64,000 nucleotides of DNA from a virus (IMGVR_UViG_3300020576_007701); one strand, 5' to 3'. Positions 15,815-62,269 are shown, counted from the first letter of the stretch. The notes: generated by a model from the letters alone, not told the origin. Translations and numbers: made by a program.

Positions 15815-16246
15815 TTAAAAGTTATCTCCATAAAACCCTGGTTCTCTCATTTGATAATCAGGGTTTTTTGCTTTCTCTAATTCAACAGACATGCTGATAT
15901 CGAATTGAACATAAGAATATTTTATTTTTTGAAAAATAAATCTGTTTACATATAGCTTAGAAAATAACAAAGAAATTACACCGCAAGAAATTGATGCAAT
16001 TGTGTTTGAAAAAATAAATGCAAACAAAAAAGAAGCTAATAAAGCAATAAAAGTTAGTACTAAAAAAATGTTTTTTACAACAACAGTGTTTTCATAATCT
16101 TTAACCAAAAAAATTGTTGCGTTTTCGCTAGCAATTTCTAGTTCTTTTTCTGTTTTTTCCGATTCTTCTAAAACGTGCTCGATTGGCTTTTTATAAAAAA
16201 AGGTAAAGACAATAGCTTCCCAAATGTTTAATACAATATTTTTCAT
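15815..16246 (-). CDS. membrane protein
   Basis: Two hydrophobic segments; ECF-like promoter upstream. Confidence 0.6.
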   Translation of the reverse strand: MKNIVLNIWEAIVFTFFYKKPIEHVLEESEKTEKELEIASENATIFLVKDYENTVVVKNIFLVLTFIALLASFLFAFIFSNTIASISCGVISLLFSKLYVNRFIFQKIKYSYVQFDISMSVELEKAKNPDYQMREPGFYGDNF

Positions 16247-16264: not shown

Positions 16265-16293
16265 TTATACGAATAATAAAGAAAAAGGTTTCA
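16265..16293 (-). promoter_or_regulatory. ECF-sigma-like promoter TGAAAC-N16-CGTATAA
   Basis: Reverse complement of TTATACG-N16-GTTTCA; same motif at four other intergenic sites. Confidence 0.65.
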
Positions 16294-37073: not shown

Positions 37074-38204
37074 ATGAAACAATACTTAGATTTATTAAAA
37101 AAAATAAAAGAAGAAGGCACATACAAACCTGCCGCTAGATCTGGAATGCCAGGGACACAAAGCTTATTTGATGACTTTGGTTTTAAGCACAATTTAACCG
37201 ATGGTTTCCCACTTCTTACAACAAAGAAAATGTTTTTTAAAGGCGTGGTTGTTGAACTTCTTTGGTTTCTTCGTGGAGATACGAATGTAAAATATTTAAT
37301 TGATAATGGCGTTAACATCTGGAATGAAGATGCTTATAATTTTTATTTAAAAGAGTGCAAAAAATGCAACATTGTTTCTGAATACATATACACTTTTGAT
37401 GAATTTGTGAACCATATTAAATTGGGTAACCAACATAGCATTGGAGGTTTATCAAATGACTATATTTTGGGCGACTGTGGGTATCAATATGGTAGAGTGT
37501 GGAGAAAGTGGGCAACAGAATTCGATTTAATGGAACAAGATGGTAGTAATAAACGCCCTATGTACTGTGATCAAATTGCAGGTGTAATAAACTCGCTTAA
37601 AAAAAACCCAGAATCAAGAAGACACTTGGTTACAGCTATTGATCCTGGCCACGACCAAGAACTTGCTCTATATTGGTGCCACGCACTATTCCAATTCAAC
37701 TGTAGGCCTTTAACGGCTATTGAAAGAGAGAAGAATTATGGCATTATTAAAAACTACACAGATGACCAAGTATCTCAAGAGCATTTCCATTTTTCCGATG
37801 AAGATGTACACAAAGCAATGGACAAAGAAAACGTTCCAAAATATTATTTAGATTGCAAATTATATCAAAGGTCGGCTGATGTTTTTTTGGGTGTTCCTTT
37901 TAATATTGCCTCTTATGCTTTGCTCACTATTTTCTTCTCAAAAATTTGCAATATGATTCCAGGAAAATTCATTCATGATTTTGGCGATGTTCACATTTAC
38001 GATAATCACAAAGAGGCGGTTGAAACACAATTATCAAGAGAACCAATGCCATTGCCAAAGTTAGTAGAAACGAGAGAAATAGATTGGAAATTAATTGGTG
38101 ATACAGCAGATTTTTCTTCTTTATCTTATACTGATTTTAAATTAGAAAATTACAACTCTCATCCTAGCATTAAAGCCGAATTATCAACTGGTTTAATAAA
38201 ATAA
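37074..38204 (+). CDS. thyA: thymidylate synthase
   Basis: FPLLTTKK, ELLWFLRG, PESRR, WCH, YQRSADVFLGVPFNIASY, GDVHIYDNH. Confidence 0.95.
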   Translation: MKQYLDLLKKIKEEGTYKPAARSGMPGTQSLFDDFGFKHNLTDGFPLLTTKKMFFKGVVVELLWFLRGDTNVKYLIDNGVNIWNEDAYNFYLKECKKCNIVSEYIYTFDEFVNHIKLGNQHSIGGLSNDYILGDCGYQYGRVWRKWATEFDLMEQDGSNKRPMYCDQIAGVINSLKKNPESRRHLVTAIDPGHDQELALYWCHALFQFNCRPLTAIEREKNYGIIKNYTDDQVSQEHFHFSDEDVHKAMDKENVPKYYLDCKLYQRSADVFLGVPFNIASYALLTIFFSKICNMIPGKFIHDFGDVHIYDNHKEAVETQLSREPMPLPKLVETREIDWKLIGDTADFSSLSYTDFKLENYNSHPSIKAELSTGLIK

Positions 38205-39721: not shown

Positions 39722-40162
39722 TTACCAAGCGTTTACCTCGCTCCACTTTATTTTGATTGTTTGATTTGGCGATACGCTATACAGATATGCTAATTGAAAC
39801 CATCCGTCAAAGTCATTTGATTTTGGTGGAACCAAGGCGTAATTAAAATTTATTATTGGAATATCTCTTCCTAAATTATCTACAAAAAAAACTTCTATAT
39901 TTTTTATATAAGAACTTGACGCATAAGAATTGGGAAAATAACTATTACTCCACAAATAAATGTAAGAATAATAATATCCATTTTTTGCTTGGTATTTTTC
40001 ATTAACAACCATCACAAAAAACGACCCACAACCAGCACAGGTTGGATTTGATTGTATCCAATTATTGTAGTTGTTAGAATGTATTGTCATTTGACGCTGA
40101 GCGCTTACGTTCAACGAAAAAGTTAAAGCAATTATAGCAAATATTTTTTTAATCAAATTCAT
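39722..40162 (-). CDS. secreted protein (signal peptide)
   Basis: MNLIKKIFAIIALTFSLNVSA-Q, a Bacteroidota-style signal with Gln at +1; ATG 40162 preferred. Confidence 0.55.
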   Translation of the reverse strand: MNLIKKIFAIIALTFSLNVSAQRQMTIHSNNYNNWIQSNPTCAGCGSFFVMVVNEKYQAKNGYYYSYIYLWSNSYFPNSYASSSYIKNIEVFFVDNLGRDIPIINFNYALVPPKSNDFDGWFQLAYLYSVSPNQTIKIKWSEVNAW

Positions 40163-41840
40163 ATAAATTGTCATAACCATAGTTGTGTGTGAAATCTTTA
40201 ATTAAAACACCAGCTATAGAATTAGCCTGGTCCTCTATTTTTCCACCAATATTTTGAACTTCTTCACCATTTTTAAACACCCCAAGTTCACGTTGACGAT
40301 TGTGAACAAGTTCATGTCCAATGGATCTACAAACATCAACAAGAGCTCTTCCGCCAGATCTAATGTGGTTTTCATTCTCCGTAGGAAGGTAAGCTGCAGT
40401 TGTTGAAATATATTCATCTCTTCCGCTCTTTATAACCACTGTAACTGGTTCTTTCATTTTTAGTTTAGCACAAGTAAAATTTATAAAGTCTTTAAGAATA
40501 TCAATTTTTTCACTTGTCATTCCTGAAATTCCTTTTTCTATTTTAAGAGTGTTTTTTTTAATTAAACCCCAAGATTCCTTTGTTTTATCTGCACGAGAAA
40601 AGACAACTTTATCACCAGAAATTTTAAAAGGCTTTTCAAATTGTTTTTTATATTTAGCTCCTTCTCCCTTTTTTACATAGGCAATTGTCATGTGCGGTTC
40701 ATATTTTGGAAAAGAAGAAGTGTGAGGCAATTTTTTTGCCCAATTATTAAGCCTTTCTAATTCCTTAGAATGTATGTTGAATTTTACAACATCATATGGC
40801 ATACCTTCGTTTTCAAAAATATCAACACCCTCAACCTCAACAGTAATAGGACCCTTGGCAACTTTTTTTACAACATTTTTAACATCTTCTACTTCTACTT
40901 CTTCATGAAACCCATATAATATTGTAACGTGAGGTTCTTTCTCAATTCCAAATCCTGGTTTATCATATATGTCTTGAGGTAATATTTTACCAATAACACT
41001 TTCCCAATTTGGTATATTAAAATACACCATTAAACATCCAAATTTTGGACTACCATCTTTGTTTCTGCTTGTAGAAACCCCCTCATTTAAACTCATAGTT
41101 TTATCAAAAGAATTTGTTTTTATAGAATCTATTTTTTCTAAATAACCATTATTTCTTAGTGTTTTAAAAACTAAGTTTTCTGTAGAATATTCCCCTCCAG
41201 ACTCTAAAGAGGCACCTCTCATTTGTTTTATTTTTTTCTTTAAAGAATCAGCCGCAGAAAGTTTTTTTTCTTCGTCAGAAATTTTTTCAATATCATCAAT
41301 TTTATTCATGATACCAGCCGCTTTGTATTGTATGGCTTCAGCGTCTATTGAGATATTTTTTTTGGTTGGCTTTTTAACCCAGTTATTTTGAAGTAAACTA
41401 TATATTGCTTTAGATCCATGAGCGTCTTCTTTTTCTTTAGCGAACAATTCGGTTGGAAACCCATAAATATCAATATTGTGTTTATTTGACCAGACCTCTT
41501 TTTTTGCATCTATGTAATCAGAAATAAGCTCGCCAGGCTCGCCATCTCCATTCTCGAAAATAACATGTATGTCAATATCGCTATGACTGGTCCAATTGTA
41601 ATTTGCTAAGCTTCCAGTGAAATAAATATCTTTTATTGGATATTCTAGCTTTAGAGAATTGTAAAATTCTTTACCAAGCTCAATCATTTTGGCTCTTACT
41701 TCTGGTTTTAAAACGCCGCCAGGGTTCCAAATTTTACCGCTTAAACCATTTTTTAGTTTAGATACATCATTTACATCAACATCGCTAGGAACGACAATTT
41801 CTTTAAGACGTTTTTTTATACGGTTAGGTGTGTAATTCAT
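40149..41840 (-). CDS. multidomain protein: Pol-beta-type nucleotidyltransferase, 2H phosphoesterase (Acb1/gp57B-like) and HExxH metallopeptidase
   Basis: TGSLANYNW...SDIDIH; EPHVTILYG and EPHMTIAY (two HxT); GHELVH...EDQAN; TATTTAT at 41855-41861 (-). Confidence 0.75.
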   Translation of the reverse strand: MNYTPNRIKKRLKEIVVPSDVDVNDVSKLKNGLSGKIWNPGGVLKPEVRAKMIELGKEFYNSLKLEYPIKDIYFTGSLANYNWTSHSDIDIHVIFENGDGEPGELISDYIDAKKEVWSNKHNIDIYGFPTELFAKEKEDAHGSKAIYSLLQNNWVKKPTKKNISIDAEAIQYKAAGIMNKIDDIEKISDEEKKLSAADSLKKKIKQMRGASLESGGEYSTENLVFKTLRNNGYLEKIDSIKTNSFDKTMSLNEGVSTSRNKDGSPKFGCLMVYFNIPNWESVIGKILPQDIYDKPGFGIEKEPHVTILYGFHEEVEVEDVKNVVKKVAKGPITVEVEGVDIFENEGMPYDVVKFNIHSKELERLNNWAKKLPHTSSFPKYEPHMTIAYVKKGEGAKYKKQFEKPFKISGDKVVFSRADKTKESWGLIKKNTLKIEKGISGMTSEKIDILKDFINFTCAKLKMKEPVTVVIKSGRDEYISTTAAYLPTENENHIRSGGRALVDVCRSIGHELVHNRQRELGVFKNGEEVQNIGGKIEDQANSIAGVLIKDFTHNYGYDNLYEFD

Positions 41841-43273: not shown

Positions 43274-44656
43274 TTAGTTCATCCACAAATTTTTGTGATC
43301 AGATAAAAACCTTTTTATATCTTCGGCTCTATTTTTTATTTCGCCCCTGTAAATAGCTTGCAAGGCTTCTTTTTTAGCCTTGCCCATTTTTTGAAAATCT
43401 CTTTTTTCGTTAAAATCTAAACCAGATTGTTCAACCGAATCAATCACAAAATCAATGAATTCCTGTTTCCTTAAATCAATATCATTTACAGTTTTTGGCA
43501 ATTCCCCATTTGCAAATTTTCTTGCCAATTCTTTATCTTTTGTTTCAACGTATGAAGATTCCAACAACATAATTGGAGATAGATTAAACAGTGAAGCGAT
43601 AGCATTTATGTGAGAAATAGCATCCACGCTTCTACCTTTTACTTCTAACACATATTTGCACAGTGCTTGAATATATTTTACATCTTCTGTTTTAGTGGTA
43701 ATATTCTTTGTGGAAAGTTGTAAAATTTTCTCAGGAGCCTCTGATTCAAATAGCATATAGCAAAACTCTGGAATGTTTCCAACCAAATCAAATTTTTTAT
43801 AATCTGAAATTTTAGAATCTAAACCAAACATTGCTTTGTAAGCACCCAAGTCAACCAATAACTTAACAGCTCTACCTAAATCAGTCTTTCCAATCATCTT
43901 TTCGAATTCCATTAAAAATCTTTCTCTTGGAAGCTCGTTTTTATCGGCAAGCATTTGAACATTATTTCTTATTAAATTAAGAGTTTCTTCATCCCACTGA
44001 TAATTAAATCTTGCTGCAAATCTAATTGCTCTAACAATTCTAAGAGGATCTTCAATAAATGCGTCTGCACTTACAGCACGTATAACACCACCCAATATGT
44101 CTTTAAGAGCGTGACCATTATCAATAAAGTTTCCATTTAAATCAAGAGCAATGGCGTTGATTGTAATGTCACGTCTAGCCAAATCATCTTGAATGGTGTA
44201 CATTGGATTTACATCGCTTTTTATAGCACGATGCCCTTTTTCATTTGGATCTTTACTATCTTTTCTTGGCAACATTACATCAATGTCTCTTTTTAATCCA
44301 ACATTTTTCATCATTTGGTTAAAAACGGAATTGTGAGAAACAAATTTGGTAGCACCAAAATCTTTTTTACCTTGTTCGTCAACCACAGATGTGTCAGTGG
44401 CTTTTCCATATTTGGACAAAATTTGAAATAATTGTTCGTATGGAATGCCACGAACAACAATGTCTAGGTCATCGCTTGGTTTGCCCATTACTGCATCTCT
44501 GACAATTCCGCCAACAGCATAAATTTCTCCGCCAGCTGCCAAAATATCACTTTTAAATTCTAACATGTTTAGAATTTTTACCAGCTTGTTTTTTTGACCT
44601 TCAGTGGATTCAGATAAAATCTTTCTTACTTCCAGTCTTAATTTATTCTCCTTCAT
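43274..44656 (-). CDS. cca: class II tRNA nucleotidyltransferase (CCA-adding / poly(A) polymerase family) with extra N-terminal leader
   Basis: VGGIVRD...DLDIVV, DLARRDITINA, EDPLRIVRAIRFAARF, ERFLMEF; leader KLRLEVRKILSES. Confidence 0.85.
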   Translation of the reverse strand: MKENKLRLEVRKILSESTEGQKNKLVKILNMLEFKSDILAAGGEIYAVGGIVRDAVMGKPSDDLDIVVRGIPYEQLFQILSKYGKATDTSVVDEQGKKDFGATKFVSHNSVFNQMMKNVGLKRDIDVMLPRKDSKDPNEKGHRAIKSDVNPMYTIQDDLARRDITINAIALDLNGNFIDNGHALKDILGGVIRAVSADAFIEDPLRIVRAIRFAARFNYQWDEETLNLIRNNVQMLADKNELPRERFLMEFEKMIGKTDLGRAVKLLVDLGAYKAMFGLDSKISDYKKFDLVGNIPEFCYMLFESEAPEKILQLSTKNITTKTEDVKYIQALCKYVLEVKGRSVDAISHINAIASLFNLSPIMLLESSYVETKDKELARKFANGELPKTVNDIDLRKQEFIDFVIDSVEQSGLDFNEKRDFQKMGKAKKEALQAIYRGEIKNRAEDIKRFLSDHKNLWMN

Positions 44657-44658
44657 CT

Positions 44659-45519
44659 TTACGATTTTTTTATAATTAAAAATTTTTCATATTTTCTTTT
44701 TAACCCTATTCGATCATTTTCAAAATTTTTATAAATAAAATTTCCAAGTTTTTTAATTCCTTCTTTATTACTAATTATAATTCTTGAAAACTTATGTCCG
44801 TTTTTTTGAATTAATCTTTGAATGTGATAATTTATGTTTAATTTATTAAATATTTCTTCTATAAAATTCCAATTTTGTTCATATCCGCTTACTATATTAA
44901 AAGTGTATATTTTATTTTTAATTGAAAAAAAATTACCATCTCCATCTATCAGACCCAATAAAAAATAAGAGTGCAAATCTTCTTTTATATATTTTAAAAT
45001 TGAGGTCCCTTTTATTTTGTTAGAAAAATTATTTTTATTTAAAAAATCACACAAAAAGCTATTAGAAACATGCATTCCAATTTGTGGCTTACCAAGTTTT
45101 TGTTGTCTTGAATAATAATTCCAATCCCCAATTCTATTAAAAACAGTCTTCAAATCACTCATGTCATTTTCAATCAAATACATCCATACATCTCTATCCA
45201 CACCTTCTTTGTTAGCTCCTATATAGCCGTCAGCCCATAAAAAACCTAAAAAATAGGCAACTTCTTTTTTATCAACATATTCAAATTGCTTATGATTAAC
45301 TTTAAATTTCGAATCATTTGTTTTTTTATTTATACCTTTAAGCGCTACTTTTTTTATTTCTCTTAAAGAATCTTTATCTACTTTTAAACTTAACTCCCTA
45401 GCTTTATCTGAAACTGAACTTTTAGGTCTATTAATTAATGTTAAACAATATTGGAGTCCATTTTTAGGATAATTCTTTATTAATATTTCTATTTCTTCTT
45501 TAGTCCATTTTGTTTTCAT
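44659..45519 (-). mobile_element. free-standing double-motif LAGLIDADG homing endonuclease
   Basis: AYFLGFLWADG and FLLGLIDGDG, LKRK; N-terminal WTKEE HTH; TATTTAT at 45531-45537 (-). Confidence 0.85.
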
Positions 45520-45549: not shown

Positions 45550-45897
45550 CTAAATCAGGTATTTTTTTTGAAATTTTTTAAAATTATTTAAAATACTATT
45601 TATATTTTCATATCCGCAAGGGTTTGCTGAATGCACATTAAAGTCATTAAAAACAATATTGTTATCCATACAAAAATCAATTAAAAATTTAGCACAAGTC
45701 ATACCAGTATTTTCTTCACCAGTTTCAATGTTTATATCGCTCAAATCATGATCGAAAGAAATAAAAGATGGGACACCATATTGATTTATGGTATCTTTGA
45801 AGTCGGTTAAGTTTCTCACAATAAACCAATCTTCATTTTTATCTTTTGGATAAATGTCTCCAGGGACTCTAATATCGTCTAAAAATATTTTGTACAT
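45550..45897 (-). CDS. cyclic-phosphate-processing receiver domain protein
   Basis: IFLDDIR.P...VRN...ISFDHDL...TG..CAKFL...HSANP.G..NI; ATG 45897 preferred over track start. Confidence 0.75.
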   Translation of the reverse strand: MYKIFLDDIRVPGDIYPKDKNEDWFIVRNLTDFKDTINQYGVPSFISFDHDLSDINIETGEENTGMTCAKFLIDFCMDNNIVFNDFNVHSANPCGYENINSILNNFKKFQKKYLI

Positions 45898-45925
45898 TTT
45901 TTTAATAAATATAGCTATTTTAACC

Positions 45926-45955
45926 TTATACGCCAAAAAGCTAAAAAAGGTTTCA
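45926..45955 (-). promoter_or_regulatory. ECF-sigma-like promoter TGAAAC-N17-CGTATAA
   Basis: Upstream of the receiver gene; a TATTTAT also lies at 45905-45911 (-). Confidence 0.6.
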
Positions 45956-46019: not shown

Positions 46020-46706
46020 ATGGAAAGAACACATTTAATTTACGCATTTGTTGACGAAAAGCAACAACCATTTTACATAGGTAGAACTTATGATTTGAAA
46101 AAACGAAAAAGAAATCACTTATCAGAAGTTAAAAAAGGAAATAATCTCCCGAAATATAATAAACTTAGAAAATTATTAAAACAACAATTAAGTTACAACG
46201 ATTTAGTAATTGTTTTAGAAGACAATATACCATCGGATCAAGTAGATAATAGAGAAATTTATTTTATTGCTAAATTTAGAGAAGAAGGTTGCAAGTTAAA
46301 AAATTTAACAGATGGAGGTGAAGGTGGAATTGACACAATACCTGGTTTAAGTGAAAAATTAAGCAAATTACACAAAGGCACAAAAAGAAGTGAAGAGACA
46401 AAAGGTAAAATAAGTGAATCAAGACTTGGAATGAAATTTACTGATGAACATAAAAAAAACTTAAGTATTGCTAGGAAGAAACGAATAACAAAATTAGAAA
46501 CTAGGGAAAAAGCTAGCAAAACATCTAAAGGTAAAATTAATATAAAACAATATATTCTAACTGACCCAAATGGATTAAAACACATAACTGTCAATGGCTT
46601 AACATTATTTTGTGAACAAAACAATTTGTCCGCACCAAATTTGTTTAAAGTTTTATCTGGGAAAAGAAAACACCATAAAGATTGGACAATAAAATTGCCT
46701 AATTAA
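46020..46706 (+). mobile_element. free-standing GIY-YIG-type homing endonuclease with NUMOD3 repeats
   Basis: IYAF...FYIGRT...R...H...E...NLTDGGEG; HKGTKRSEETKGKIS, FTDEHKKNLS. Confidence 0.8.
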
Positions 46707-46735
46707 TGAAACCTTTTTCGTATATTTGCGTATAA
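46707..46735 (+). promoter_or_regulatory. overlapping ECF-like (TGAAAC-N16-CGTATAA) and sigmaA-like (TATATTTG, 46721-46728) promoters of the NAD operon
   Basis: Both motifs lie in the 50 nt before the pncB ATG. Confidence 0.65.
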
Positions 46736-46756
46736 GATAATAAATTAATACAAGAA

Positions 46757-47995
46757 ATGGAAAATCAAGAAATTGGAATAATTAGAAGTATATTAGACAC
46801 CGATCAATACAAATTGTCAATGCAACAAGCTATTTGCCAGCTGTTTCCAAAAGCAAAGGTTCGCTACAAATTCATTAATCGTGGAACTACTATCTTCCCC
46901 AGAGGTTTCGATGTGAAACTTAGACAAGAAATTGCAAAAATGGCCAACCTAACCCTTCAAAAAATTGAAAAAGAACATCTCCAAAAAGAATGCAAATTTT
47001 TAACGCCAGTATATCTTGATTTCTTATCTGGATATCGTTTCGACCCATCAGAAGTTGGCGTAATATTACATAGTGATGGCACCCTTGAAGTTACAATGGA
47101 AGGCTTTTGGTATCGCACAGTATTATGGGAAGTTCCAATCATGGCAATTATTTGTGAGCTTTATTACAAAGAAACTGGTCAATTACCAACCTTAGATAGA
47201 CAAGATCGTCAAAAAAACAACCAAAACAAAATGAAGTTTTTTGTAGAAAATTCTATGATGCTCATGGAGTTTGGTACAAGAAGAAGATATAGCTTTGAAA
47301 ACCAATTAGAGGTTTGCAAAGATTTCAAAGATGTTTACGACAGTAAACGTGTATTCAGAGGAACTTCAAACGTTTACATTTCAATGTTGCTTGGTTTAAA
47401 GCCACTTGGCACACATGCACACGAATGGTTTATGTTTATGGCTGCACGTTATGGCTATAGAATGGCAAATGTTAAAGGTTTAGAACATTGGGTTGACGTT
47501 TACAAGGGCGACCTTGGAATTGCTCTAACAGACACATATACATCAGATGAGTTTTTTAAAACTTTAGATGTAAAATATGCAAAATTATTTGATGGCCAAC
47601 GAAATGATTCTGGCGACCCAGAAGAATTTGTTAAAAAATCAATCGCAAAATATCTTTCATTAAATATTGACCCAAGCACAAAAACATTAGCGTTTACAAA
47701 TGCTCTTAATTTAGAAACCGCACTTGCCATTAACAAAGTTTGCGACAAGATCGGCAATGGAGTAAGAAGGACTTATGGCATCGGAACCTTTTGTTCAAAC
47801 GATGTTGGTGTTAAACCACTTAATATTGTAATAAAACTTGCAGAAGCTCAAGCAATTCCTGATTGCGAAGATTGGATTCCTACTGTTAAATTAAGCGACG
47901 ATGTTGGAAAACATACTGGCGATACAGAAGAAGTAAGAAAGTGCGCTGAGGCACTTAGAATTGAACTTAAAACTAAAGAAACAGCAACTGCATAA
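46757..47995 (+). CDS. pncB: nicotinate phosphoribosyltransferase
   Basis: LDTDQYKLSM, EFGTRRR, GTSNV, GTHAHEW (phospho-His), TDTY, RNDSGD, GIGT, KLSD..GK; these are PncB rather than NadV signatures. Confidence 0.92.
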   Translation: MENQEIGIIRSILDTDQYKLSMQQAICQLFPKAKVRYKFINRGTTIFPRGFDVKLRQEIAKMANLTLQKIEKEHLQKECKFLTPVYLDFLSGYRFDPSEVGVILHSDGTLEVTMEGFWYRTVLWEVPIMAIICELYYKETGQLPTLDRQDRQKNNQNKMKFFVENSMMLMEFGTRRRYSFENQLEVCKDFKDVYDSKRVFRGTSNVYISMLLGLKPLGTHAHEWFMFMAARYGYRMANVKGLEHWVDVYKGDLGIALTDTYTSDEFFKTLDVKYAKLFDGQRNDSGDPEEFVKKSIAKYLSLNIDPSTKTLAFTNALNLETALAINKVCDKIGNGVRRTYGIGTFCSNDVGVKPLNIVIKLAEAQAIPDCEDWIPTVKLSDDVGKHTGDTEEVRKCAEALRIELKTKETATA

Positions 47996-47998
47996 TTT

Positions 47999-48424
47999 AT
48001 GGAATTAATCACACAACAAATTTGTAAAACTTCTGACTTGGGTGTTCATGGGAACTTGTTCGGAGGAACAATGCTTAGCTGGTTAGATTTATCTGCAGCA
48101 ATCATGGCAACCAAGATTTGCAAAACCAAAGACATGGTTACCGTAAAAATGGATTGCGTTGAATTTAAGGCACCCGTAAAAGAAAACCATACCATCGCTA
48201 TATATGGAGAGGTATACTTCATGGGAACGTCTTCCATAGGTCTTAAACTAGTAGCTAAACGTCACGAGATTTATAGCGAAGACGAAACTGAAGTGTGTTC
48301 TGTAAAAACCACATTTGTTAGAATCACAGATGAAGGAAAATCAAGACCTATTGATCTTGAAGTAAGAAACAAATATTCAAATTTACCAAAAAAACCAATC
48401 GCAGATGCCGTTACCAAATATTAA
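47999..48424 (+). CDS. acyl-CoA thioesterase (hotdog fold, YciA-like)
   Basis: HGNLFGGTMLSWLD, VTVKMD.VEF..PV, GTSSI, TFVRI...G.SRP. Confidence 0.85.
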   Translation: MELITQQICKTSDLGVHGNLFGGTMLSWLDLSAAIMATKICKTKDMVTVKMDCVEFKAPVKENHTIAIYGEVYFMGTSSIGLKLVAKRHEIYSEDETEVCSVKTTFVRITDEGKSRPIDLEVRNKYSNLPKKPIADAVTKY

Positions 48425-48971
48425 AATAGGAAAAGAAGAAAGAGCTTATGATGGCTATTTCAAAATTGACCAAGCTGAAATGCAAGAAATTCATGAAAGC
48501 GGAGAAATAAAAACATTCAAGCGTTTTAAGGTTACACGACCTGATGCTGTTGGAATACTTGTTTACAATGAAAGTAGCAGAAAAATTATTTTAGTTCGCC
48601 AACAAAGATATCCAATTGCTCACAAAGTAGAAGAAAACATACTTGAAATTGTTGCTGGCAAAATTGACGCTGGCGAAACACCAGCGCAAGCCGCAGTAAG
48701 AGAAATGGAAGAAGAAATAGGTTACAAAATTACCGAAGACATGTTGCATTGTCACATGGAAACTTTCCCTTCCCCAGGATACTCAAGTGAGACGGTCCAC
48801 ATTTACATTGTAGTAGTTGGAGATAAACACAAAGTATCAAATGGCGGCGGAGTTCTAGGAGAGCATGAAAACATTGAAATTGTAGAATTAGATCGTGTTG
48901 AATTTTTAAGTCTAATTAAAGACGGAAAAATTAAAGATGGCAAAACAATTCTGGCCTCAACAATTTTGTAA
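48405..48971 (+). CDS. nudF: Nudix hydrolase, ADP-ribose pyrophosphatase type
   Basis: Nudix box GKIDAGETPAQAAVREMEEEIGY; QQRYP, SPGYSSE, EHENIE, IKDGKT. Confidence 0.8.
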   Translation: MPLPNIKIGKEERAYDGYFKIDQAEMQEIHESGEIKTFKRFKVTRPDAVGILVYNESSRKIILVRQQRYPIAHKVEENILEIVAGKIDAGETPAQAAVREMEEEIGYKITEDMLHCHMETFPSPGYSSETVHIYIVVVGDKHKVSNGGGVLGEHENIEIVELDRVEFLSLIKDGKIKDGKTILASTIL

Positions 48972-49159
48972 TGTCAAAAACAAATCCAAGAATACATATA
49001 ATTTGCGGAATGTGCGGCAACAAAAATGAAATGAAATTTAAAATTGTTGAGGACATAGAAAGTGAAACAAATAAAAAGTATTTAAGAATACATTTGATTT
49101 GTGATAATTGTAGTTCTTTAACTGATTTGAGCGAAATAATTAAAGAGGAAACAAAATAA
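48971..49159 (+). CDS. small Zn-ribbon protein
   Basis: CGMCG...CDNC; coupled within the NAD operon. Confidence 0.55.
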   Translation: MSKTNPRIHIICGMCGNKNEMKFKIVEDIESETNKKYLRIHLICDNCSSLTDLSEIIKEETK

Positions 49160-49160
49160 A

Positions 49161-49775
49161 ATGTCTGATACAGCGGAAAATAAACAACAACATATTGGAT
49201 TGCTTCTTGGTTCATTTAATCCGATACACATAGGACATCTTGTTCTAGCTGAAATGGCATTAGAACAATGTAAGCTAGACGCTGTGTGGTTTATTGTTTC
49301 CCCAATGAATCCCGCTAAAGCAAATAGTGGAACATTAATAAACGAAGATGAAAGATTGTATATGACAAAAATTGCCGCAGAATACAATGAAAAATTTTAT
49401 GTTTCCAACATAGAATTTTCAATGCCAAGGCCATCATATACAAACAACACTCTTAAACATTTAAGAGAAATAAGACCAAATAAAAAGTTTTCTATTATTT
49501 GTGGAACAGATACTCACTTTAAAATTCCACGCTGGAAAAATGCTCAAGATGTAGTTGATAACCATGACTTTATTCTTTATGAACGTGGTGGCAATGACAA
49601 AGGAGTTTGCACAGAAAAAGGTATTGATAAAAAAACAACCATTTTAAAAGATGTACCAGTTCTAGAAATTTCATCAACTTTCATAAGAAATCAAATAAAA
49701 AACAATTTAACATTAAAGCATCTATTACCAGAAGAAGTAATACAACACATTAAAGCAAATAATTTATATAAATAA
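49161..49775 (+). CDS. nadD: nicotinate-mononucleotide adenylyltransferase
   Basis: GSFNPIHIGH, SPMNP, PRPSYT..TL, ICGTD, W, ISSTFIR. Confidence 0.93.
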   Translation: MSDTAENKQQHIGLLLGSFNPIHIGHLVLAEMALEQCKLDAVWFIVSPMNPAKANSGTLINEDERLYMTKIAAEYNEKFYVSNIEFSMPRPSYTNNTLKHLREIRPNKKFSIICGTDTHFKIPRWKNAQDVVDNHDFILYERGGNDKGVCTEKGIDKKTTILKDVPVLEISSTFIRNQIKNNLTLKHLLPEEVIQHIKANNLYK

Positions 49776-49777
49776 AC

Positions 49778-50653
49778 ATGGAAACAACAATTCAAAAAAC
49801 AACCCGTAACTTCCAAGAAGTTAAAAACAGAATCACAAATTGGTTGCAAAACTATTCAGAAAATTCCAACACAAATGGATACATTATAGGCGTTTCTGGT
49901 GGAATTGATTCAGCCGTTTGTTCTACACTTTGCGCTCTAACTGGTCTGCCACTTATTGTTGTAAAGATGTCTATTCATCAAGCTGCTGATCAGGCTGATC
50001 GTGGAACAAAACACATTGAATGGCTTAAATCACGCTTTCCAAATGTCAAATCTTTGGATATTGATTTAACTGATGCATACGACAAAGAAATTGAGTTGCT
50101 TACAAAATCTGGCGCACTTGATGGTGTTAGTGATGACAACATTTTTCTTACATCCGCCAATATAAGATCTCGCTTAAGAATGATTACACTTTACGGCATA
50201 GCTGGAGCTCACAAACTTCTTGTGTGTGGGACTGGAAACAAAGTCGAAGATTATGGTGTTGGATTCTTTACGAAATATGGAGATGGCGGAATTGATTTAT
50301 CTCCGATTGGAGAACTTCTTAAATCTGAGGTATATGCTCTTGGCGCAGAACTTGGAGTAATTGATGAAATTTTACAAGCTCGCCCTACAGATGGATTGTG
50401 GGACGACGGACGCACTGACGAAGATCAAATTGGGGCCACATACGACGAATTAGAGTGGGCCTTGGTTTTTTGTGATACTATACCAGTGCCAGTTTTAAAC
50501 AATTTTCTAAAAGGCGGAAGCATTCCAGCTCTTTATCAACCAATGTTAAGCGCTTTAACCGAGCGTCAATCTGAAGTGGTAAAAATTTATTGGAAACGTC
50601 ACCAGGCCAATGCTCACAAAATGATCATGCCTCCAATTTGTCCTTTAAATTAA
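49778..50653 (+). CDS. nadE: NH3-dependent NAD+ synthetase
   Basis: GVSGGIDSA, NIRSRLRM, GTGNKVE, TKYGDGG, PTDGLW, DEDQIGATY; no glutaminase domain. Confidence 0.93.
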   Translation: METTIQKTTRNFQEVKNRITNWLQNYSENSNTNGYIIGVSGGIDSAVCSTLCALTGLPLIVVKMSIHQAADQADRGTKHIEWLKSRFPNVKSLDIDLTDAYDKEIELLTKSGALDGVSDDNIFLTSANIRSRLRMITLYGIAGAHKLLVCGTGNKVEDYGVGFFTKYGDGGIDLSPIGELLKSEVYALGAELGVIDEILQARPTDGLWDDGRTDEDQIGATYDELEWALVFCDTIPVPVLNNFLKGGSIPALYQPMLSALTERQSEVVKIYWKRHQANAHKMIMPPICPLN

Positions 50654-50658
50654 TCACC

Positions 50659-50871
50659 ATGGAAAAATTGGTTTTATTTTTAACAGTTCTAGCTTGGATA
50701 TTTGGAATATTATCTACAGTTATATTTTTAGGTGCCGTTTATTTAAATGTAACATATATTGGATCTTTACAAGAATCGCTTGATGCACTTCGTGGTAAAA
50801 CACGAACATATAGAGCAGGTGTGTGGCTTTTAATAGCCATTATATGTTGGACTTTTATAATTGTGTTTTAA
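50659..50871 (+). CDS. small membrane protein (2 TM)
   Basis: ATG 50659 preferred; last gene before the terminator. Confidence 0.55.
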   Translation: MEKLVLFLTVLAWIFGILSTVIFLGAVYLNVTYIGSLQESLDALRGKTRTYRAGVWLLIAIICWTFIIVF

Positions 50872-50874
50872 ATA

Positions 50875-50900
50875 AAAAGGCCTCAAATAGAGGCCTTTTT
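50875..50900. terminator. bidirectional intrinsic terminator
   Basis: AAAAGGCCTC/GAGGCCTTTT between convergent genes. Confidence 0.8.
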
Positions 50901-51162
50901 ATTTAAATTTTCTTATTATTCTTAAGTAATAATATTTTAATTTTTCATACAGAGTTCTCAGCTTTCTTTTTTTAGATAAAAACTCATTTACTGTTTTTAT
51001 CTTTTCTTTTTTTATTGCAGCAGCCATTTCGTATTCCTCATTTTTTGTACAAATATCAATCCAAACATTCGCCAAGGCGACTTGTTTTGAGAATGGATAT
51101 TTGACTTTTTCAAGGTTATACCAACTAACTATAAATTTTATTTTTTCTTCTACCTCTGACAT
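50899..51162 (-). CDS. hypothetical protein
   Basis: 87 aa ORF; EEYEMAAAIK UVR-like motif. Confidence 0.5.
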   Translation of the reverse strand: MSEVEEKIKFIVSWYNLEKVKYPFSKQVALANVWIDICTKNEEYEMAAAIKKEKIKTVNEFLSKKRKLRTLYEKLKYYYLRIIRKFK

Positions 51163-52561: not shown

Positions 52562-53110
52562 ATGGTTTTACCAATTTACATATACGGAGAAAAAATCCTA
52601 AATAATTCAGGCGAGAATATAACTTCTGAATACCCAGATTTAAATATTCTAATAGAAAACATGTTTGAGACAATGTTAAAAGCAAAAGGCATTGGTTTAG
52701 CAGCACAGCAAATTGGTTTGGCAATAAATTTATTTGTCATTAATATCACCCACTATAAAGAGGGTGATGAACTACTTAAAGATTTTAAAAAAGTTTTTAT
52801 AAATTCAGAAATTTTAGAAACAAGTGACGATGAGCAAAGTTTTGTCGAAGGTTGTTTAAGTATACCAGACATACATCTTTCTGTAAAAAGACCAACCAAA
52901 ATTAAATTAAAATATTTTGACGAAAACTTTGTTGAACATATTGAGTGGTTTGATGGTTTGGCTGCACGATGCATACAACACGAATATGACCACACTCAAG
53001 GAAATCTTTTTTTATTAAAAGCTTCGCCATTTGAAAGAAAGATGGCGAGCGGCAAATTGAAAGATATATTAAAAGGAAATTTTGTAACTAATTATAAATG
53101 TAAAATTTAA
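52562..53110 (+). CDS. def: peptide deformylase
   Basis: GIGLAAQQIG, EGCLSIP, QHEYDH. Confidence 0.95.
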   Translation: MVLPIYIYGEKILNNSGENITSEYPDLNILIENMFETMLKAKGIGLAAQQIGLAINLFVINITHYKEGDELLKDFKKVFINSEILETSDDEQSFVEGCLSIPDIHLSVKRPTKIKLKYFDENFVEHIEWFDGLAARCIQHEYDHTQGNLFLLKASPFERKMASGKLKDILKGNFVTNYKCKI

Positions 53111-53113
53111 ACT

Positions 53114-53266
53114 ATGACCGAAGAAATGAAAAAAATATTGCAACAATCTGTAAAGTTGCTAAGATCAAATGGTGGAATAAAAAACAAAGAAATAAAACCA
53201 TTGATATTTAGTATGGAGAAAGCAATTAAACAACGTAGATCTACACAAAGAGTTAAACGTGCATAA
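53114..53266 (+). CDS. small basic protein (50 aa, not in ORF track)
   Basis: MTEEMKKILQQSVKLLRS...RVKRA fills the def-adk gap with 3-4 nt spacers. Confidence 0.5.
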   Translation: MTEEMKKILQQSVKLLRSNGGIKNKEIKPLIFSMEKAIKQRRSTQRVKRA

Positions 53267-53270
53267 AAAT

Positions 53271-53849
53271 ATGAAGAATATAATTTTAATAGGACCTCCT
53301 GGAGCTGGTAAAGGAACTCAAGCAAAAATATTAGCTCAAAAATATGGTTATGTTCACATATCCACTGGAGACCTAATCAGAGAAGAACAAGTAAAAGACA
53401 CAGCTATTGGAAAATTAGCTAAAAGATTAATTGATCAAGGTAATTTTTTGCCAGATGAAATAACAATACAAATTGTTAAACAAAAAATACTTGACAACAT
53501 TAATGTTCCTGGATTTATATTTGATGGATTCCCAAGAACCGTAGAACAAGCTAAGGCTTTGGATTTTTTTCTCATCAATAGAAAGACACCAATAAATAAT
53601 GTTTTGTTTTTCGAACTCGCAGATGAAGTTATCAAGAGCAGAATAGAAGAAAGATCAAAGACAGAAAATAGAGCGGACGACAACTCTTCTGTTATAGAAA
53701 CTAGAATTCACAACTATAAAACTAAAACAGTGCCAATAAAAGATTATTATCAAGATAGTCGCTTATTTGGAAATAAAATGCTTAATACCATAAATGGAAA
53801 CAATTCACTAGAAATGGTTACTCTTGAAATAGAAGAAGTTATTTCTTAG
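53271..53849 (+). CDS. adk: adenylate kinase (short form, lid-less)
   Basis: GPPGAGKGTQA, HISTGDLIR, FDGFPRTVEQA, RADD; ATG 53271 preferred. Confidence 0.92.
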   Translation: MKNIILIGPPGAGKGTQAKILAQKYGYVHISTGDLIREEQVKDTAIGKLAKRLIDQGNFLPDEITIQIVKQKILDNINVPGFIFDGFPRTVEQAKALDFFLINRKTPINNVLFFELADEVIKSRIEERSKTENRADDNSSVIETRIHNYKTKTVPIKDYYQDSRLFGNKMLNTINGNNSLEMVTLEIEEVIS

Positions 53850-59383: not shown

Positions 59384-59412
59384 TGCAACTTTTTTAAACA
59401 TTTTACGTATAA
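59384..59412 (+). promoter_or_regulatory. ECF-sigma-like promoter TGCAAC-N16-CGTATAA
   Basis: One mismatch to the motif at the other four sites. Confidence 0.55.
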
Positions 59413-59432: not shown

Positions 59433-59810
59433 ATGTGGGATGAATTAATTATAAAAACAAGAAATGGTTTCCAAGAAACTGGGGTTACAACCATCAAAAC
59501 ATTTGAGATTCCTGGTGATCATAGCATTTCTGACAACGCCAGGTGTTTTAGAATAGATTTAGATAGCCCATTTGCTATAAGCATCACAATATTCAAAGAT
59601 ACCAAAGAGGGAATTCGATTAACAAAAATGATTGAAGAAAAAGAAACTCTGGAGTACATCGAAGATCAAATTGCAAGGTGGTATTTAAAAAGAGCCAACC
59701 CAAAAGATATCTGTGAAAAAATTAAAGGTATTTCAGAAGAAAAATTCAACGAAGGCAGAGAAAGCAAAGCTGCCGAGCTTAGATCTGTGTTGGGAGTATT
59801 AGAATATTAA
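59433..59810 (+). CDS. hypothetical protein
   Basis: 125 aa ORF. Confidence 0.6.
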   Translation: MWDELIIKTRNGFQETGVTTIKTFEIPGDHSISDNARCFRIDLDSPFAISITIFKDTKEGIRLTKMIEEKETLEYIEDQIARWYLKRANPKDICEKIKGISEEKFNEGRESKAAELRSVLGVLEY

Positions 59811-61308: not shown

Positions 61309-61337
61309 TGAAACCTTTTATTGTTTGTTTCGTATAA
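61309..61337 (+). promoter_or_regulatory. ECF-sigma-like promoter TGAAAC-N16-CGTATAA
   Basis: Exact motif 14 nt before ATG 61352. Confidence 0.65.
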
Positions 61338-61351
61338 AATAAGAAAAAACA

Positions 61352-62269
61352 ATGATTGATACAAAAAAACCTGTCCGTTTCTATGATGGCAAATTGCCAG
61401 TAAAAGATAGAGTTTATTTTACAATGGATTCTGTTTTAACAGAAAACGATCATGTGTGCACATGCAACATCAAAGGAGAACCAAAAACTTTTTTCTTATT
61501 CAATAAGATAAATAAAAATTGTCTTGACGCAGTTCGTAGAGGTTGGGTTGCAGAAAATTACGAAATCCCAAATTACCCAGAGCCAGAATTAAAATTCACA
61601 AATTCATTAACGCCTATTAATGTGGATTATGGAATTCTTGCTGAATGGCAAGGTGGAAATAAATCCTCACAAATTCAGGCTTGGGCGCAATTAAATGATC
61701 CTGCTAGAATTAGTAAAATCACAAAAGAAAAAAGAGGATTTTTTAAAAAAATATTAAATCACTATTCTTTAGAAAACATTGTTGTTGATAAAAATGATAA
61801 AAAAATTCCAGAACAACACCTCCCATACCTTCAAGAATATTGGAAACAATTTATTTTTATAAGAGATTCTTTTACAATTGTTGCACCGCCACTTAACCTT
61901 AGCAACTTCGTCCAATCAATAAATGTTGTGTCCACCATCGACGTGATTCAAGGCTACATCACCGTCCCTGTATATCACATCAAATTTGATGGCGATATGG
62001 AAATGATGATATACGGCGATTTTAACAATTGGTTTATTTCGGTTATTTCAAAAAATAAAATTGACATAAACCCAGAATTGCTTAACAACCCAGCTGATAA
62101 ACTTTTTTATGTAGATTGTCCAGGTTTTAAAGAAGAGTGGATTTTTGGCCCATACATAGAAAATAAAAATCAATTTACTGTGTGTGTAAATTATTCAGAA
62201 AATATACTTTTCACATTATTTTTTATGTTATATTTACAACTTAAAGCCAATCATGACAGACAGAATTAA
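61352..62269 (+). CDS. hypothetical protein
   Basis: 305 aa ORF. Confidence 0.6.
   Translation: MIDTKKPVRFYDGKLPVKDRVYFTMDSVLTENDHVCTCNIKGEPKTFFLFNKINKNCLDAVRRGWVAENYEIPNYPEPELKFTNSLTPINVDYGILAEWQGGNKSSQIQAWAQLNDPARISKITKEKRGFFKKILNHYSLENIVVDKNDKKIPEQHLPYLQEYWKQFIFIRDSFTIVAPPLNLSNFVQSINVVSTIDVIQGYITVPVYHIKFDGDMEMMIYGDFNNWFISVISKNKIDINPELLNNPADKLFYVDCPGFKEEWIFGPYIENKNQFTVCVNYSENILFTLFFMLYLQLKANHDRQN

Follow-up and report, generated by a model that had tools for sequence, protein, structure and literature searches.

A large uncultured T4-like phage carries a compact operon, apparently assembled in phages, that is proposed to sustain the NAD+ pool of the infected cell by deamidated (Preiss-Handler) salvage, including under attack by NADase-type defences, a reading given a probability of about 0.6. 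The operon was analysed in a 64,000-nucleotide window of viral DNA, the whole stretch presented for study, and occupies positions 46757-50871 on the + strand. In this tightly packed unit, PncB, a thioesterase, a Nudix hydrolase, a 62-aa ORF, NadD, NadE and a 70-aa protein follow one another (Table 1). As annotated, the set very probably constitutes a self-contained, intact biochemical pathway from nicotinate to NAD+ with ADP-ribose splitting added. The analysis established which genes are present, that their motifs are intact, how the operon is built and conserved, and that it comes from a phage; what the enzymes act on, how much flux the route carries, when it operates and whether it helps against defence systems are predictions. 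A measurable counter-defence effect of the operon is a more tentative proposition, with odds slightly below even.

Gene content and architecture of the operon

Every gene named in the sequence-only reading was found in its place on the + strand, and family scores together with motif inspection confirmed that these genes, with their signature motifs intact, form one packed unit; the 70-aa gene after nadE had been overlooked. Junctions between operon genes range from -20 to +5 nt, pncB, nadD and nadE all fall within 3.9 kb, and the catalytic motifs of PncB, Nudix, NadD and NadE are all preserved. Together with the single terminator and the conserved motif in front of pncB, this spacing indicates a single transcription unit.

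Table 1. Features of the NAD+ operon and its surroundings, in window positions
Feature	Position	Strand	Basis
GIY-YIG homing endonuclease	46020-46706	+	PF01541 at cut-off; TIGR01453 1.1e-10
Promoter-like motif GAAACCTTTTT-N10-CGTATAA, ~20 nt 5' of pncB	46708-46735	+	Conservation, rarity
PncB, nicotinate phosphoribosyltransferase, 412 aa	46757-47995	+	TIGR01514, NF003704
Hotdog-fold acyl-CoA thioesterase, YciA/ACOT7 type, 141 aa	47999-48424	+	PF03061
Nudix hydrolase, predicted ADP-ribose/ADP-sugar pyrophosphatase subfamily, 188 aa	48405-48971	+	TIGR00052
62-aa ORF, two CxxC pairs, Zn-ribbon-like	48971-49159	+	Sub-threshold family matches only
NadD, nicotinate-mononucleotide adenylyltransferase, 204 aa	49161-49775	+	TIGR00482, NF000840
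NadE, NH3-dependent NAD+ synthetase, 291 aa	49778-50653	+	TIGR00552, PF02540
70-aa protein, two predicted TM helices, final gene of the unit	50659-50871	+	Position, conservation
Bidirectional intrinsic terminator, common to the operon and a convergent 87-aa ORF	50867-50907	.	18-pair stem
Adk	53259-53849		NF001381 200.9 (cut-off 187)

PncB passes two PncB-specific curated thresholds (TIGR01514, 384.5 bits against a cut-off of 269.55; NF003704, 415.6 against 379) and finds no models or structures other than those of NAPRTases, the best solved relative being the Porphyromonas gingivalis NAPRTase 2IM5 (E 3.6e-99). Its FGTRR and GTHAHE motifs are invariant across the clade, and it is the sole PF04095 gene on the 152,940-bp contig from which the window comes. 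These features point to a NAPRTase, the type of enzyme with which the Preiss-Handler pathway begins, rather than a Nampt. NadD scores 159.8 bits with TIGR00482 (cut-off 112.45) and 160.2 with NF000840 (cut-off 150) and carries the motifs GSFNPIHIGH (HxGH) and STFIR (SxxxR), while NadM and NadR models match it marginally (1.9e-4 to 4.5e-4). NadE is recognised by TIGR00552 (163 bits, cut-off 63.65) and PF02540 (6.8e-42) and has an SGGIDS PP-loop; as it contains no CN-hydrolase (glutaminase) domain, it is of the NH3 type. Its nearest phage homologues belong to T4-like cyanophages and pelagiphage HTVC008M (42-50% identity).

The Nudix protein exceeds the TIGR00052 YffH/AdpP cut-off (97 bits against 79.55) and retains the box G85-x5-E-x7-REMEEEIGY at residues 85-107, with a proline at +15. 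Such a downstream proline is reportedly a marker of the ADP-ribose pyrophosphatase Nudix subfamily, a rule ascribed to Dunn et al. 1999. The top PDB matches are the ADP-ribose pyrophosphatases 8WV3/9JAX, followed by NudK, a GDP-mannose pyrophosphatase whose family and structure scores nearly equal those of the NudF type. Box, model and proline thus place the protein in the predicted ADP-ribose pyrophosphatase subfamily (NudF/YffH/AdpP), with a NudK-type specificity also possible. It is kept in every operon-clade locus that reaches its position, L106 stopping short of it. The thioesterase, whose gene shares its last 20 nt with the beginning of the Nudix gene, matches PF03061 (5.9e-11), PDB 3D6L (1e-14), ACOT7, HI0827 YciA and phrog_18230. 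It is present in 11 of the 14 operon-clade loci (absent from L020-L022) and represents an accessory gene of the operon.

Two small ORFs complete the unit. The 62-aa ORF has a homologue in L014 and L015 only (74% identity), and its slot in other relatives is empty or filled by unrelated small ORFs, which makes it a variable filler gene. The 70-aa ORF, whose TM topology was read from sequence, begins 5 nt past the nadE stop and is kept directly after nadE in L016-L021 and L026 (33-73% identity); the protein matches nothing in Pfam or PHROG and nothing informative in the atlas, and its gene belongs to the NAD operon.

A putative promoter and a terminator flank the unit. The motif before pncB follows the general form GAAACCTTTTT-N8-13-CGTATAA; its mirror image, at 45926-45954, precedes the divergent cREC gene. 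In eight relatives (L014, L016 and L018-L022 among them) the motif is kept before pncB. The 153-kb contig contains eight raw matches against 1.1 in shuffles, about five of them good copies, and the motif before pncB is inferred to act as a promoter. The terminator stem has a GGCCTC/GAGGCC core flanked by T/A runs, and equivalent hairpins occur in L014, L016, L019, L020 and L021. Of the promoter pair and terminator described earlier, the terminator stands, and the promoter pair has a counterpart in the specific, divergent promoter-like motifs; a generic sigma-70 scan of promoters gave no excess (32 found, 28.8 expected). The GIY-YIG endonuclease gene is inserted between the two divergent motifs and lies outside the NAD pathway; it is present in L014-L017 and L028, has a homologue on the opposite strand in L107, and is missing from L018-L022.

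Phage origin and distribution of the cluster

The contig is linear, with a CheckV completeness of ~52%, and its length and this estimate imply a genome of ~290 kb, a figure derived from a fragment. The phage probably infects a host of the Bacteroidota. The operon is surrounded by a nucleotide-metabolism region, with ThyA/ThyX, dNMP kinase and MazG upstream and Pdf and Adk downstream; adk sits in a separate unit beyond the operon terminator. PncA and Prs had been reported absent from the window, and family searches extended to the whole contig (~52% of the genome) agreed, turning up neither pncA, prs nor pnuC, nor a further gene of the NAPRTase/Nampt family. Specifically, nicotinamidase gave neither a PF00857 match nor a tblastn match with phage PncA on the contig (G000), and none was present on its two nearest IMG/VR relatives (G001, G002). 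Across these three fragments, 24-65% complete, there was likewise no Prs and no match to PF04973 (PnuC); the TIGR01251 (Prs) search returned just a 20-bit match, to a 177-aa type-I PRTase.

A survey of synteny showed that the operon block recurs, in the same setting, on at least 12 independent contigs from NCBI, JGI, Logan and IMG/VR, representing different samples. The order PncB-Nudix-NadD-NadE and the flanking synteny are kept on independent contigs across PncB identities of 50-85%, and the PncBs of these operons form one clade in the tree (SH-like support 98). The earlier concern that host DNA had been misassembled into the viral contig could draw on the nearest cellular PncB homologues, which come from Bacteroidota, the likely host phylum. 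However, these are at most 54% identical to the phage PncB and stand without operon partners, GC is uniform along the contig (~0.32), and tail sheath, major head (capsid) and baseplate genes lie on the same contig as the operon. Together with the recurrence of the block between the same phage flanks, this effectively refutes misassembly, and the block is phage DNA.

Among viral PncB loci, NadE and/or NadD lie nearby in 77/95 and a PncA-like nicotinamidase adjoins PncB in 56/95, while all partner genes are missing near PncB in 76 of 80 cellular loci, which suggests that the operon was assembled in phages. The clade described here is a PncA-less, Nudix-bearing variant of these viral clusters. 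The frequency of PncA beside PncB suggests nicotinamide as the natural input of this class of phage cluster. Isochorismatase-family genes occur in all five Bacteroidota genomes tested, but in only one of the five is such a gene closely similar to phage PncA, so that supply of nicotinamidase by the host is only plausible.

Proposed pathway and competing explanations

In the proposed pathway, PncB would convert nicotinate and PRPP (with ATP) to NaMN, NadD would adenylylate NaMN to NaAD, and NadE would use ammonia to turn NaAD into NAD+. The co-transcribed Nudix would hydrolyse ADP-ribose, the other NAD+ breakdown product, to AMP and ribose-5-phosphate, thereby clearing it and returning its parts to the nucleotide and PRPP pool; links to adk and PRPP supply are chemically consistent. 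Nicotinamide would first have to be deamidated, presumably by a host nicotinamidase, since the clade encodes none on available DNA, and this reaction would also free the ammonia needed by NadE. In this way the phage could keep or rebuild the NAD+ pool when NAD+ is limiting, including when NADase-type defences fire. The deamidated chemistry predicted by the sequence-only reading, distinct from amidated NARP1 and NARP2, is well supported by the family thresholds and motifs of PncB, NadD and NadE, the constancy of NadE and the failure to find Nampt, Adps/Prs or PnuC on the contig. It is further favoured because NadE lies beside PncB in 74/95 viral loci and would be pointless if the PRTase product were NMN. 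Since it consumes several ATP and depends on PRPP, how much flux the pathway could sustain during abortive NAD+ collapse is uncertain.

The stable, syntenic inheritance of the operon, unlike that of a variable accessory island, means that housekeeping fits at least as well as counter-defence. The main competitor is a pure auxiliary metabolic module that draws on environmental nicotinate to supply NAD+ for redox metabolism and nucleotide synthesis while a slow-growing, nutrient-limited host is infected over a long period, with no meaningful anti-NADase effect. The stable inheritance of the operon within a nucleotide-metabolism region across a deep clade agrees with this, as does the lack of a clade nicotinamidase on available DNA, which would keep NADase-released nicotinamide out of the route unless the host intervened; in Li et al. 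2024 (PMC11662467), too, clusters of this kind are taken to supply what phages need to propagate. This explanation is nevertheless rather unlikely. No NAD+-consuming phage enzyme (LigA, SIR2, KptA or macro domain) was found on the contig and two nearest relatives, all fragments, and the constant ADP-ribose-type Nudix, with PncA in 56/95 other phage loci, speaks for recycling of breakdown products more than for external niacin. Moreover, NARP2 and NARP3 are likewise ordinary salvage routes encoded by phages, yet both were experimentally shown to overcome NAD+ depletion (NARP3: PMC13464706). For clusters of the present kind, no experimental test of such a role was found in the literature.

Other explanations alter the function of individual genes. 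The Nudix might act on NDP-sugars, NAD-capped RNA, CoA derivatives or an ADPr-derived immune signal, with an independent thioesterase in the operon by chance. The near-equal NudK scores fit this, the thioesterase stands alone after thyA in Flavobacterium phage immuto with no NAD gene beside it and is missing from L020-L022, and Iyer et al. 2022 treat phage Nudix domains in ADPr-derivative and RNA-repair contexts, the divergent neighbours here being cREC, a CCA-adding enzyme and an NTase-2H protein. Such a role is improbable, however, given that within the clade the Nudix always lies between PncB and NadD and is translationally coupled, its top solved matches, subfamily model and proline are ADP-ribose-type, and Nudix ADP-ribose pyrophosphatases are known partners of NMN adenylyltransferases, as in the NadM-Nudix of NARP2 phages. 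Far less probable still is a PRTase using nicotinamide or ADPR-PP, in which case the locus would be a form of NARP2 or NARP1. NAPRTase and Nampt/Namat do have a common fold and fall into the same Pfam family (PF04095), but PncB passes two PncB-specific thresholds and resembles NAPRTases alone, no Prs/Adps-like gene was found on the contig, the conserved NadE would be redundant, and NARP1 would lose the ADPR it requires to the Nudix. The Preiss-Handler salvage operon is the preferred reading.

Relation to known NAD+ systems

The novelty first claimed for the full operon does not hold, as jumbo-phage clusters of pncB, nadD and nadE, termed 'Preiss handler pathway' and exemplified by Kuafu_71 and Kuafu_19, were described by Li et al., Microbiome 2024 (PMC11662467), and a related cluster in Phosso is in GenBank. 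Like the NAD-jumbo phages of that study, which are large, uncultured and in many cases assigned to Bacteroidota hosts, the present phage clusters pncB, nadD and nadE on phage DNA into a predicted complete nicotinate-to-NAD+ route known from sequence. Genomes of that class exceed 200 kb; the present phage is represented by a 152,940-bp fragment. Unlike those phages, which come from animal guts, it is T4-like and its lineage has a Baltic Sea Flavobacterium phage as nearest cultured relative. Compared by description, it further differs in that its operon includes genes for an ADP-ribose-type Nudix, a thioesterase and a membrane protein of 70 aa but none for PncA. In Sinorhizobium phage Phosso (PV764938, GenBank annotation), a stretch of ~5 kb holds nadE and pncB together with genes for a MutT-like Nudix and an NMN adenylyltransferase; in Agrobacterium phage Atu_ph07, an ADP-ribose pyrophosphatase gene lies close to pncB; and Xanthomonas phage X1 (2026, PMC13384950) reportedly carries pncB, nadM, nadD, nadE and NAMPT, suggested to counter NAD+ depletion. 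Gene order in all three differs from that of the operon here, none has the thioesterase or 70-aa protein, and the PncBs of Phosso and Atu_ph07 are 28-29% identical to the present one.

The place of a third NAD-reconstitution route, proposed for this operon, has meanwhile been taken by NARP3, a PnuC-like transporter with a NadR-like bifunctional enzyme that restores NAD+ against Sir2-HerA (Sci Adv 2026, PMC13464706). NARP3, too, is a phage-encoded salvage route of an ordinary bacterial kind, but it imports nicotinamide riboside, whereas the present operon is accompanied by no PnuC on the three fragments (G000-G002) and its NadD, on which the NadR model is marginal, is not NadR-type. NARP1 (Adps and Namat; Osterman et al. 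2024) likewise starts from the NADase-defence products ADP-ribose and nicotinamide, but adds pyrophosphate to ADPR and couples the product straight to nicotinamide, whereas the present operon is predicted to hydrolyse ADPR; the contig yielded neither a Prs-like Adps nor a Nampt-like Namat. NARP2 (Nampt and Nmnat; Vibrio phage KVP40 NadV/NatV type) shares the combination of a PRTase and an adenylyltransferase with an associated ADP-ribose-type Nudix. It is amidated (nicotinamide to NMN to NAD+), however, and uses two enzymes, without NadE and with the Nudix fused to NadM, whereas the operon described here, with no Nampt found on the contig, appears to follow deamidated chemistry that takes three enzymes, its adenylyltransferase being of the NadD type and its Nudix encoded by a gene of its own.

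Gene content and predicted transcription signals of the operon

The operon consists of seven closely spaced ORFs, with junctions of -20 to +5 nt, that encode PncB, a thioesterase, a Nudix hydrolase, a Zn-ribbon ORF, NadD, NadE and a small hydrophobic protein. Family scores, gene spacing and a check of the catalytic motifs, which are intact, bear out a sequence-only reading that had described a tightly packed PncB/Nudix/NadD/NadE unit; its gene list is extended slightly by the 70-aa ORF at the 3' end. The best solved relative of PncB is the Porphyromonas gingivalis enzyme, and the best solved matches of the Nudix protein are ADP-ribose pyrophosphatases, with NudK close behind.

Features of the NAD+ operon and its surroundings (window positions; motif denotes GAAACCTTTTT-N8-13-CGTATAA)
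Feature	Position	Strand	Details
Motif copy	16265-16292	-	heads gene 15815-16246
ThyA	37074-38204	+	376 aa
NTP_transf_2-2H protein	40149-41840	-	563 aa
CCA-adding/PolyA_pol enzyme	43274-44656	-	
LAGLIDADG endonuclease	44659-45519	-	
cREC ORF	45550-45936	-	
Motif copy	45926-45954	-	faces cREC gene
GIY-YIG endonuclease	46020-46706	+	
Motif copy	46708-46735	+	~20 nt 5' of pncB
Seven-ORF operon	46757-50871	+	
PncB	46757-47995	+	TIGR01514 384.5 bits (cut-off 269.55); NF003704 415.6 (cut-off 379)
Hotdog-fold thioesterase	47999-48424	+	PF03061; nearest solved structures YciA/ACOT7-type acyl-CoA thioesterases
Nudix hydrolase, YffH/AdpP subfamily	48405-48971	+	TIGR00052 97 (cut-off 79.55)
62-aa ORF (Zn-ribbon)	48971-49159	+	two CxxC pairs
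NadD	49161-49775	+	TIGR00482 159.8 (cut-off 112.45)
Exact TATAAATA	49755-49777		
NadE	49778-50653	+	TIGR00552 163 (cut-off 63.65); no glutaminase domain
70-aa protein	50659-50871	+	two hydrophobic helices
Bidirectional terminator	50867-50907		strong
Peptide deformylase	52562-53110	+	
Adenylate kinase	53259-53849	+	
Motif copy	59385-59412	+	heads gene 59433-59810
Motif copy	61310-61337	+	heads gene 61352-62269

A promoter-like motif precedes pncB and is kept there in eight relatives, and its mirror copy faces the divergent cREC gene. The motif is rare in the contig, where about five good copies stand before five genes or operons (8 raw hits vs 1.1 in shuffles). Because this specific motif is rare and is kept before pncB in relatives, and the terminator that ends the operon is also conserved, the earlier placement of the unit between a promoter pair and a terminator was essentially right. 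Apart from the NAD and cREC operons, the genes headed by GAAAC...CGTATAA lack Pfam matches, and the motif therefore says nothing about timing or the function of a regulon. A generic sigma-70 scan returned no promoter excess and was uninformative, and an Rfam search of the DNA yielded no riboswitch or other family, only sub-threshold terminator look-alikes. The T4-type late promoter TATAAATA lies upstream of just 10 of 148 ORFs; its exact copy just 5' of the nadE start, within the last part of nadD, may be either a promoter internal to the operon or a chance occurrence in AT-rich DNA. The GIY-YIG endonuclease gene is read as an insertion outside the NAD pathway, because it lies between the two divergent motif copies and is missing from several relatives.

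Phage origin, conservation and assembly

The operon-bearing contig is a phage. It is a single IMG/VR record of 152,940 bp, classed as linear, of which the window makes up the right-hand 64 kb; CheckV puts the completeness of the record at 52%, from which a full genome of roughly 290 kb would follow. Phage structural genes on the contig include those for a tail sheath, a T4-type major head protein and a baseplate wedge protein; SbcCD, an SNF2 helicase, MazG, ThyA, the CCA-adding enzyme and homing endonucleases are encoded in the window; GC content is uniform (0.27-0.35 overall, 0.32-0.34 over the operon). tRNA genes were not detected on the contig. A Bacteroidota host is suggested by the cultured phage with the most similar capsid protein, Flavobacterium phage vB_FspM_immuto (44% identity), by the closest cellular PncB homologues, nearly all from Bacteroidota, by the P. 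gingivalis structural match, and by the near-absence of Shine-Dalgarno-like cores, which precede 3% of the contig's 148 ORFs vs 6% at random positions.

The module is conserved across related phages. Where PncB homologues reach 83-85% identity, on NCBI, JGI and Logan contigs 54-190 kb long, the shared order is PncB-thioesterase-Nudix-(small ORF)-NadD-NadE; at 57-61% identity PncB-Nudix-NadD-NadE is retained, with or without the thioesterase, and two IMG/VR contigs at 50-53% identity retain the five-gene form. Two of the longer relatives, of 190 kb and 207 kb, are contig JAOQHZ010000047.1 of GCA_025490995.1 and Ga0504917_0000003 of JGI 3300048647. The flanks are syntenic everywhere, with ThyA or ThyX, a dNMP-kinase-like gene, the nucleotidyltransferase-2H protein and the cREC-CCA-adding enzyme upstream, and an opposite-strand 87-aa ORF, DUF5522, peptide deformylase and adenylate kinase downstream. 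These last two genes, kept in almost all relatives reaching that far, form a separate co-oriented unit past the terminator and the opposite-strand ORF.

Several neighbouring genes have features of their own. The LAGLIDADG endonuclease appears to have split a cREC-PolyA_pol gene in the window, because both parts form one fused protein of 481-587 aa at three related PncB loci (L016, L019 and L020); at another, L014, the same gene is split elsewhere by a different insert. The 563-aa protein has two parts, an NTP_transf_2 nucleotidyltransferase and a 2H phosphoesterase domain (LigT / 2',5' RNA ligase / Acb1-like), is kept beside the cREC-CCA enzyme in all relatives, and is possibly an RNA-repair or cyclic-nucleotide-degrading counter-defence protein. 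The match of ThyA covers the whole 266-position Pfam model, which at its length implies an internal insertion of roughly 100 residues; ThyA of phage immuto is likewise over-long.

PncB-type clusters are widespread among large uncultured phages. In IMG/VR, a single-protein scan found no PncB, and an alignment-based scan was required, which recovered at least 199 contigs with PncB relatives. Among 95 viral PncB loci examined (80 from IMG/VR, 9 from other assemblies and 6 GenBank phage records), NadE is present in 74 within fetched flanks of 8-10 kb, NadD in at least 43 (a lower bound by tblastn), and one or both in 77. In a FastTree phylogeny of 159 PncB sequences, midpoint-rooted and thus silent on the direction of transfer, the 13 PncBs of Nudix-type operons group together in a single clade (SH-like support 98) whose sister is a viral clade of 18 members (88); both adjoin a 70-member cellular group, mostly Bacteroidota, with weak support (70). 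Three contigs placed in bacterial MAGs (L106-L108; "uncultured bacterium" twice and "Deltaproteobacteria") have the operon in its phage layout and probably represent phage DNA that was mis-binned; in one of them, L107, the layout is complete, including Adk and a homologue of the GIY-YIG gene. Because operon partners are absent within 6 kb in 76 of 80 cellular PncB loci, and the three MAG contigs with the operon are probably mis-binned, the conclusion is that phages assembled the operon instead of capturing it whole. The nearest sequenced-phage relatives of its NadE are those of T4-like cyanophages and pelagiphage HTVC008M, a kinship that suggests a mosaic origin.

Predicted function of the operon

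Depleting NAD+ is one of the main ways in which bacteria defend themselves against phages. The reactions of the deamidated route, of nicotinamidase and of ADP-ribose cleavage are established chemistry. This textbook route is the most likely function of the operon. PncB would convert nicotinate and PRPP to NaMN, from which NadD would form NaAD with ATP, and NadE would complete NAD+ using NH3 and ATP. The Nudix enzyme would cleave ADP-ribose to AMP and ribose-5-phosphate, and the latter could be returned to PRPP, with AMP as the second product. Given a nicotinamidase, nicotinamide would supply nicotinate as well as ammonia for NadE; the scheme would then close chemically on both products of NADase defences, and we infer that it may operate in this way in the phage. 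The deamidated chemistry proposed earlier held up, with the family scores of PncB, NadD and NadE in its favour. An amidated, NARP2-like (Nampt/Nmnat) reading is disfavoured by the constant presence of NadE, and a NARP1-like (Adps/Namat) one by the Nudix enzyme, which would destroy the NARP1 substrate.

PncA and Prs, reported as absent from the window, are also lacking on the whole 152,940-bp contig, a fragment, which contains no isochorismatase/PncA-family gene, no ribose-phosphate pyrophosphokinase (a 177-aa type-I PRTase alone gave a weak score), no second NAPRTase/Nampt-family gene and no PnuC. The two nearest IMG/VR relatives, both fragments, have no PncA either. Isochorismatase-family genes occur in all five Bacteroidota genomes with PncB among the closest cellular homologues; only one of the five is close to phage PncA, so that supply of nicotinamidase by the host is no more than plausible. 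Elsewhere a PncA-like nicotinamidase accompanies 56 of the 95 viral PncB loci, often directly 5' of pncB. There, phage PncA, PncB and NadE, with NadD where detected, would make up a full phage-encoded deamidated route from nicotinamide to NAD+. This neighbourhood was first noted in IMG/VR 3300027899_000001, a 405-kb phage genome that is complete and has terminal repeats.

Both general NAD+ supply and escape from NADase immunity are possible benefits to the phage. A counter-defence role is favoured by the close link to an ADP-ribose-type Nudix enzyme and by the position of PncA next to PncB in most other phage clusters. It is also consistent with the lack of detectable NAD+-consuming phage enzymes (LigA, macro, KptA and SIR2) on the contig and its two nearest relatives, all fragments, and it has a precedent in NARP2 and NARP3, ordinary salvage routes that serve as counter-defence. 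In favour of plain supply, the module is stable and syntenic within a nucleotide-metabolism region, and the operon clade encodes no nicotinamidase of its own on the DNA available.

The accessory genes are conserved to different degrees. The thioesterase gene runs 20 nt into the start of the Nudix gene; of 14 operon-clade loci, 11 have it and three lack it. Its closest cultured-phage homologue follows thyA, with no NAD genes nearby, and five Bacteroidota genomes hold no close counterpart, only distant homologues of ~30% identity. A role as a PncA replacement was rejected because neither gene is present in three of the loci (L020-L022). The 70-aa membrane protein directly follows nadE in seven relatives and has no match in Pfam or PHROG and no informative atlas neighbour; homologues of the Zn-ribbon ORF occur in the closest pair of relatives only.

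The most far-reaching reading is tentative, with a probability of about 0.35. It proposes that PncB-NadD-NadE with an ADP-ribose pyrophosphatase may constitute a fourth phage NAD+ pathway, assembled by phages from genes of different origin, that with a host- or phage-encoded nicotinamidase would restore NAD+ and rescue infection under NADase defences. The thioesterase and the 70-aa protein would be functional accessories (e.g. in precursor handling or uptake) and not passengers.

Comparison with known phage NAD+ pathways

Experiments have established three routes by which phages rebuild NAD+, and all three do without deamidated chemistry. NARP1 and NARP2 were described in 2024, and NARP3, a PnuC/NadR pair, followed in August 2026 (PMC13464706); because NARP3 is already published, the place of a third route, for which this operon had been a candidate, is taken. 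The phage NAD routes covered by Iyer et al. 2022 are NadV/NadM/NadR only. Li et al. 2024 (PMC11662467) described 174 "NAD-jumbo phages", including a Kuafu clade with Bacteroidota hosts, and explicitly assigned a pncB, nadD and nadE cluster to the Preiss-Handler pathway. Sinorhizobium phage Phosso has a GenBank-annotated nadE-pncB-Nudix-NMNAT cluster, and a 2026 paper on Xanthomonas phage X1 (PMC13384950) suggests that such genes may counter NAD+ depletion. The sequence-only interpretation thus stands in its chemistry and falls in its novelty, including that of the full operon. The literature search turned up no experiment that tests a deamidated phage route, and no phage pathway goes by the name "NARP4".

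Since these clusters are common in large uncultured phages, a positive result for counter-defence activity would add a widespread fourth route, and would indicate that phages can turn almost any salvage pathway to counter-defence. No new principle comes from this locus; it is of value as a compact, clean example of seven co-transcribed genes, without PncA and with an ADP-ribose-type Nudix, that also offers two conserved accessory genes, the thioesterase and the 70-aa membrane protein. Operons of this kind had been described before; what sets this one apart is its phage lineage and its set of accessory genes.
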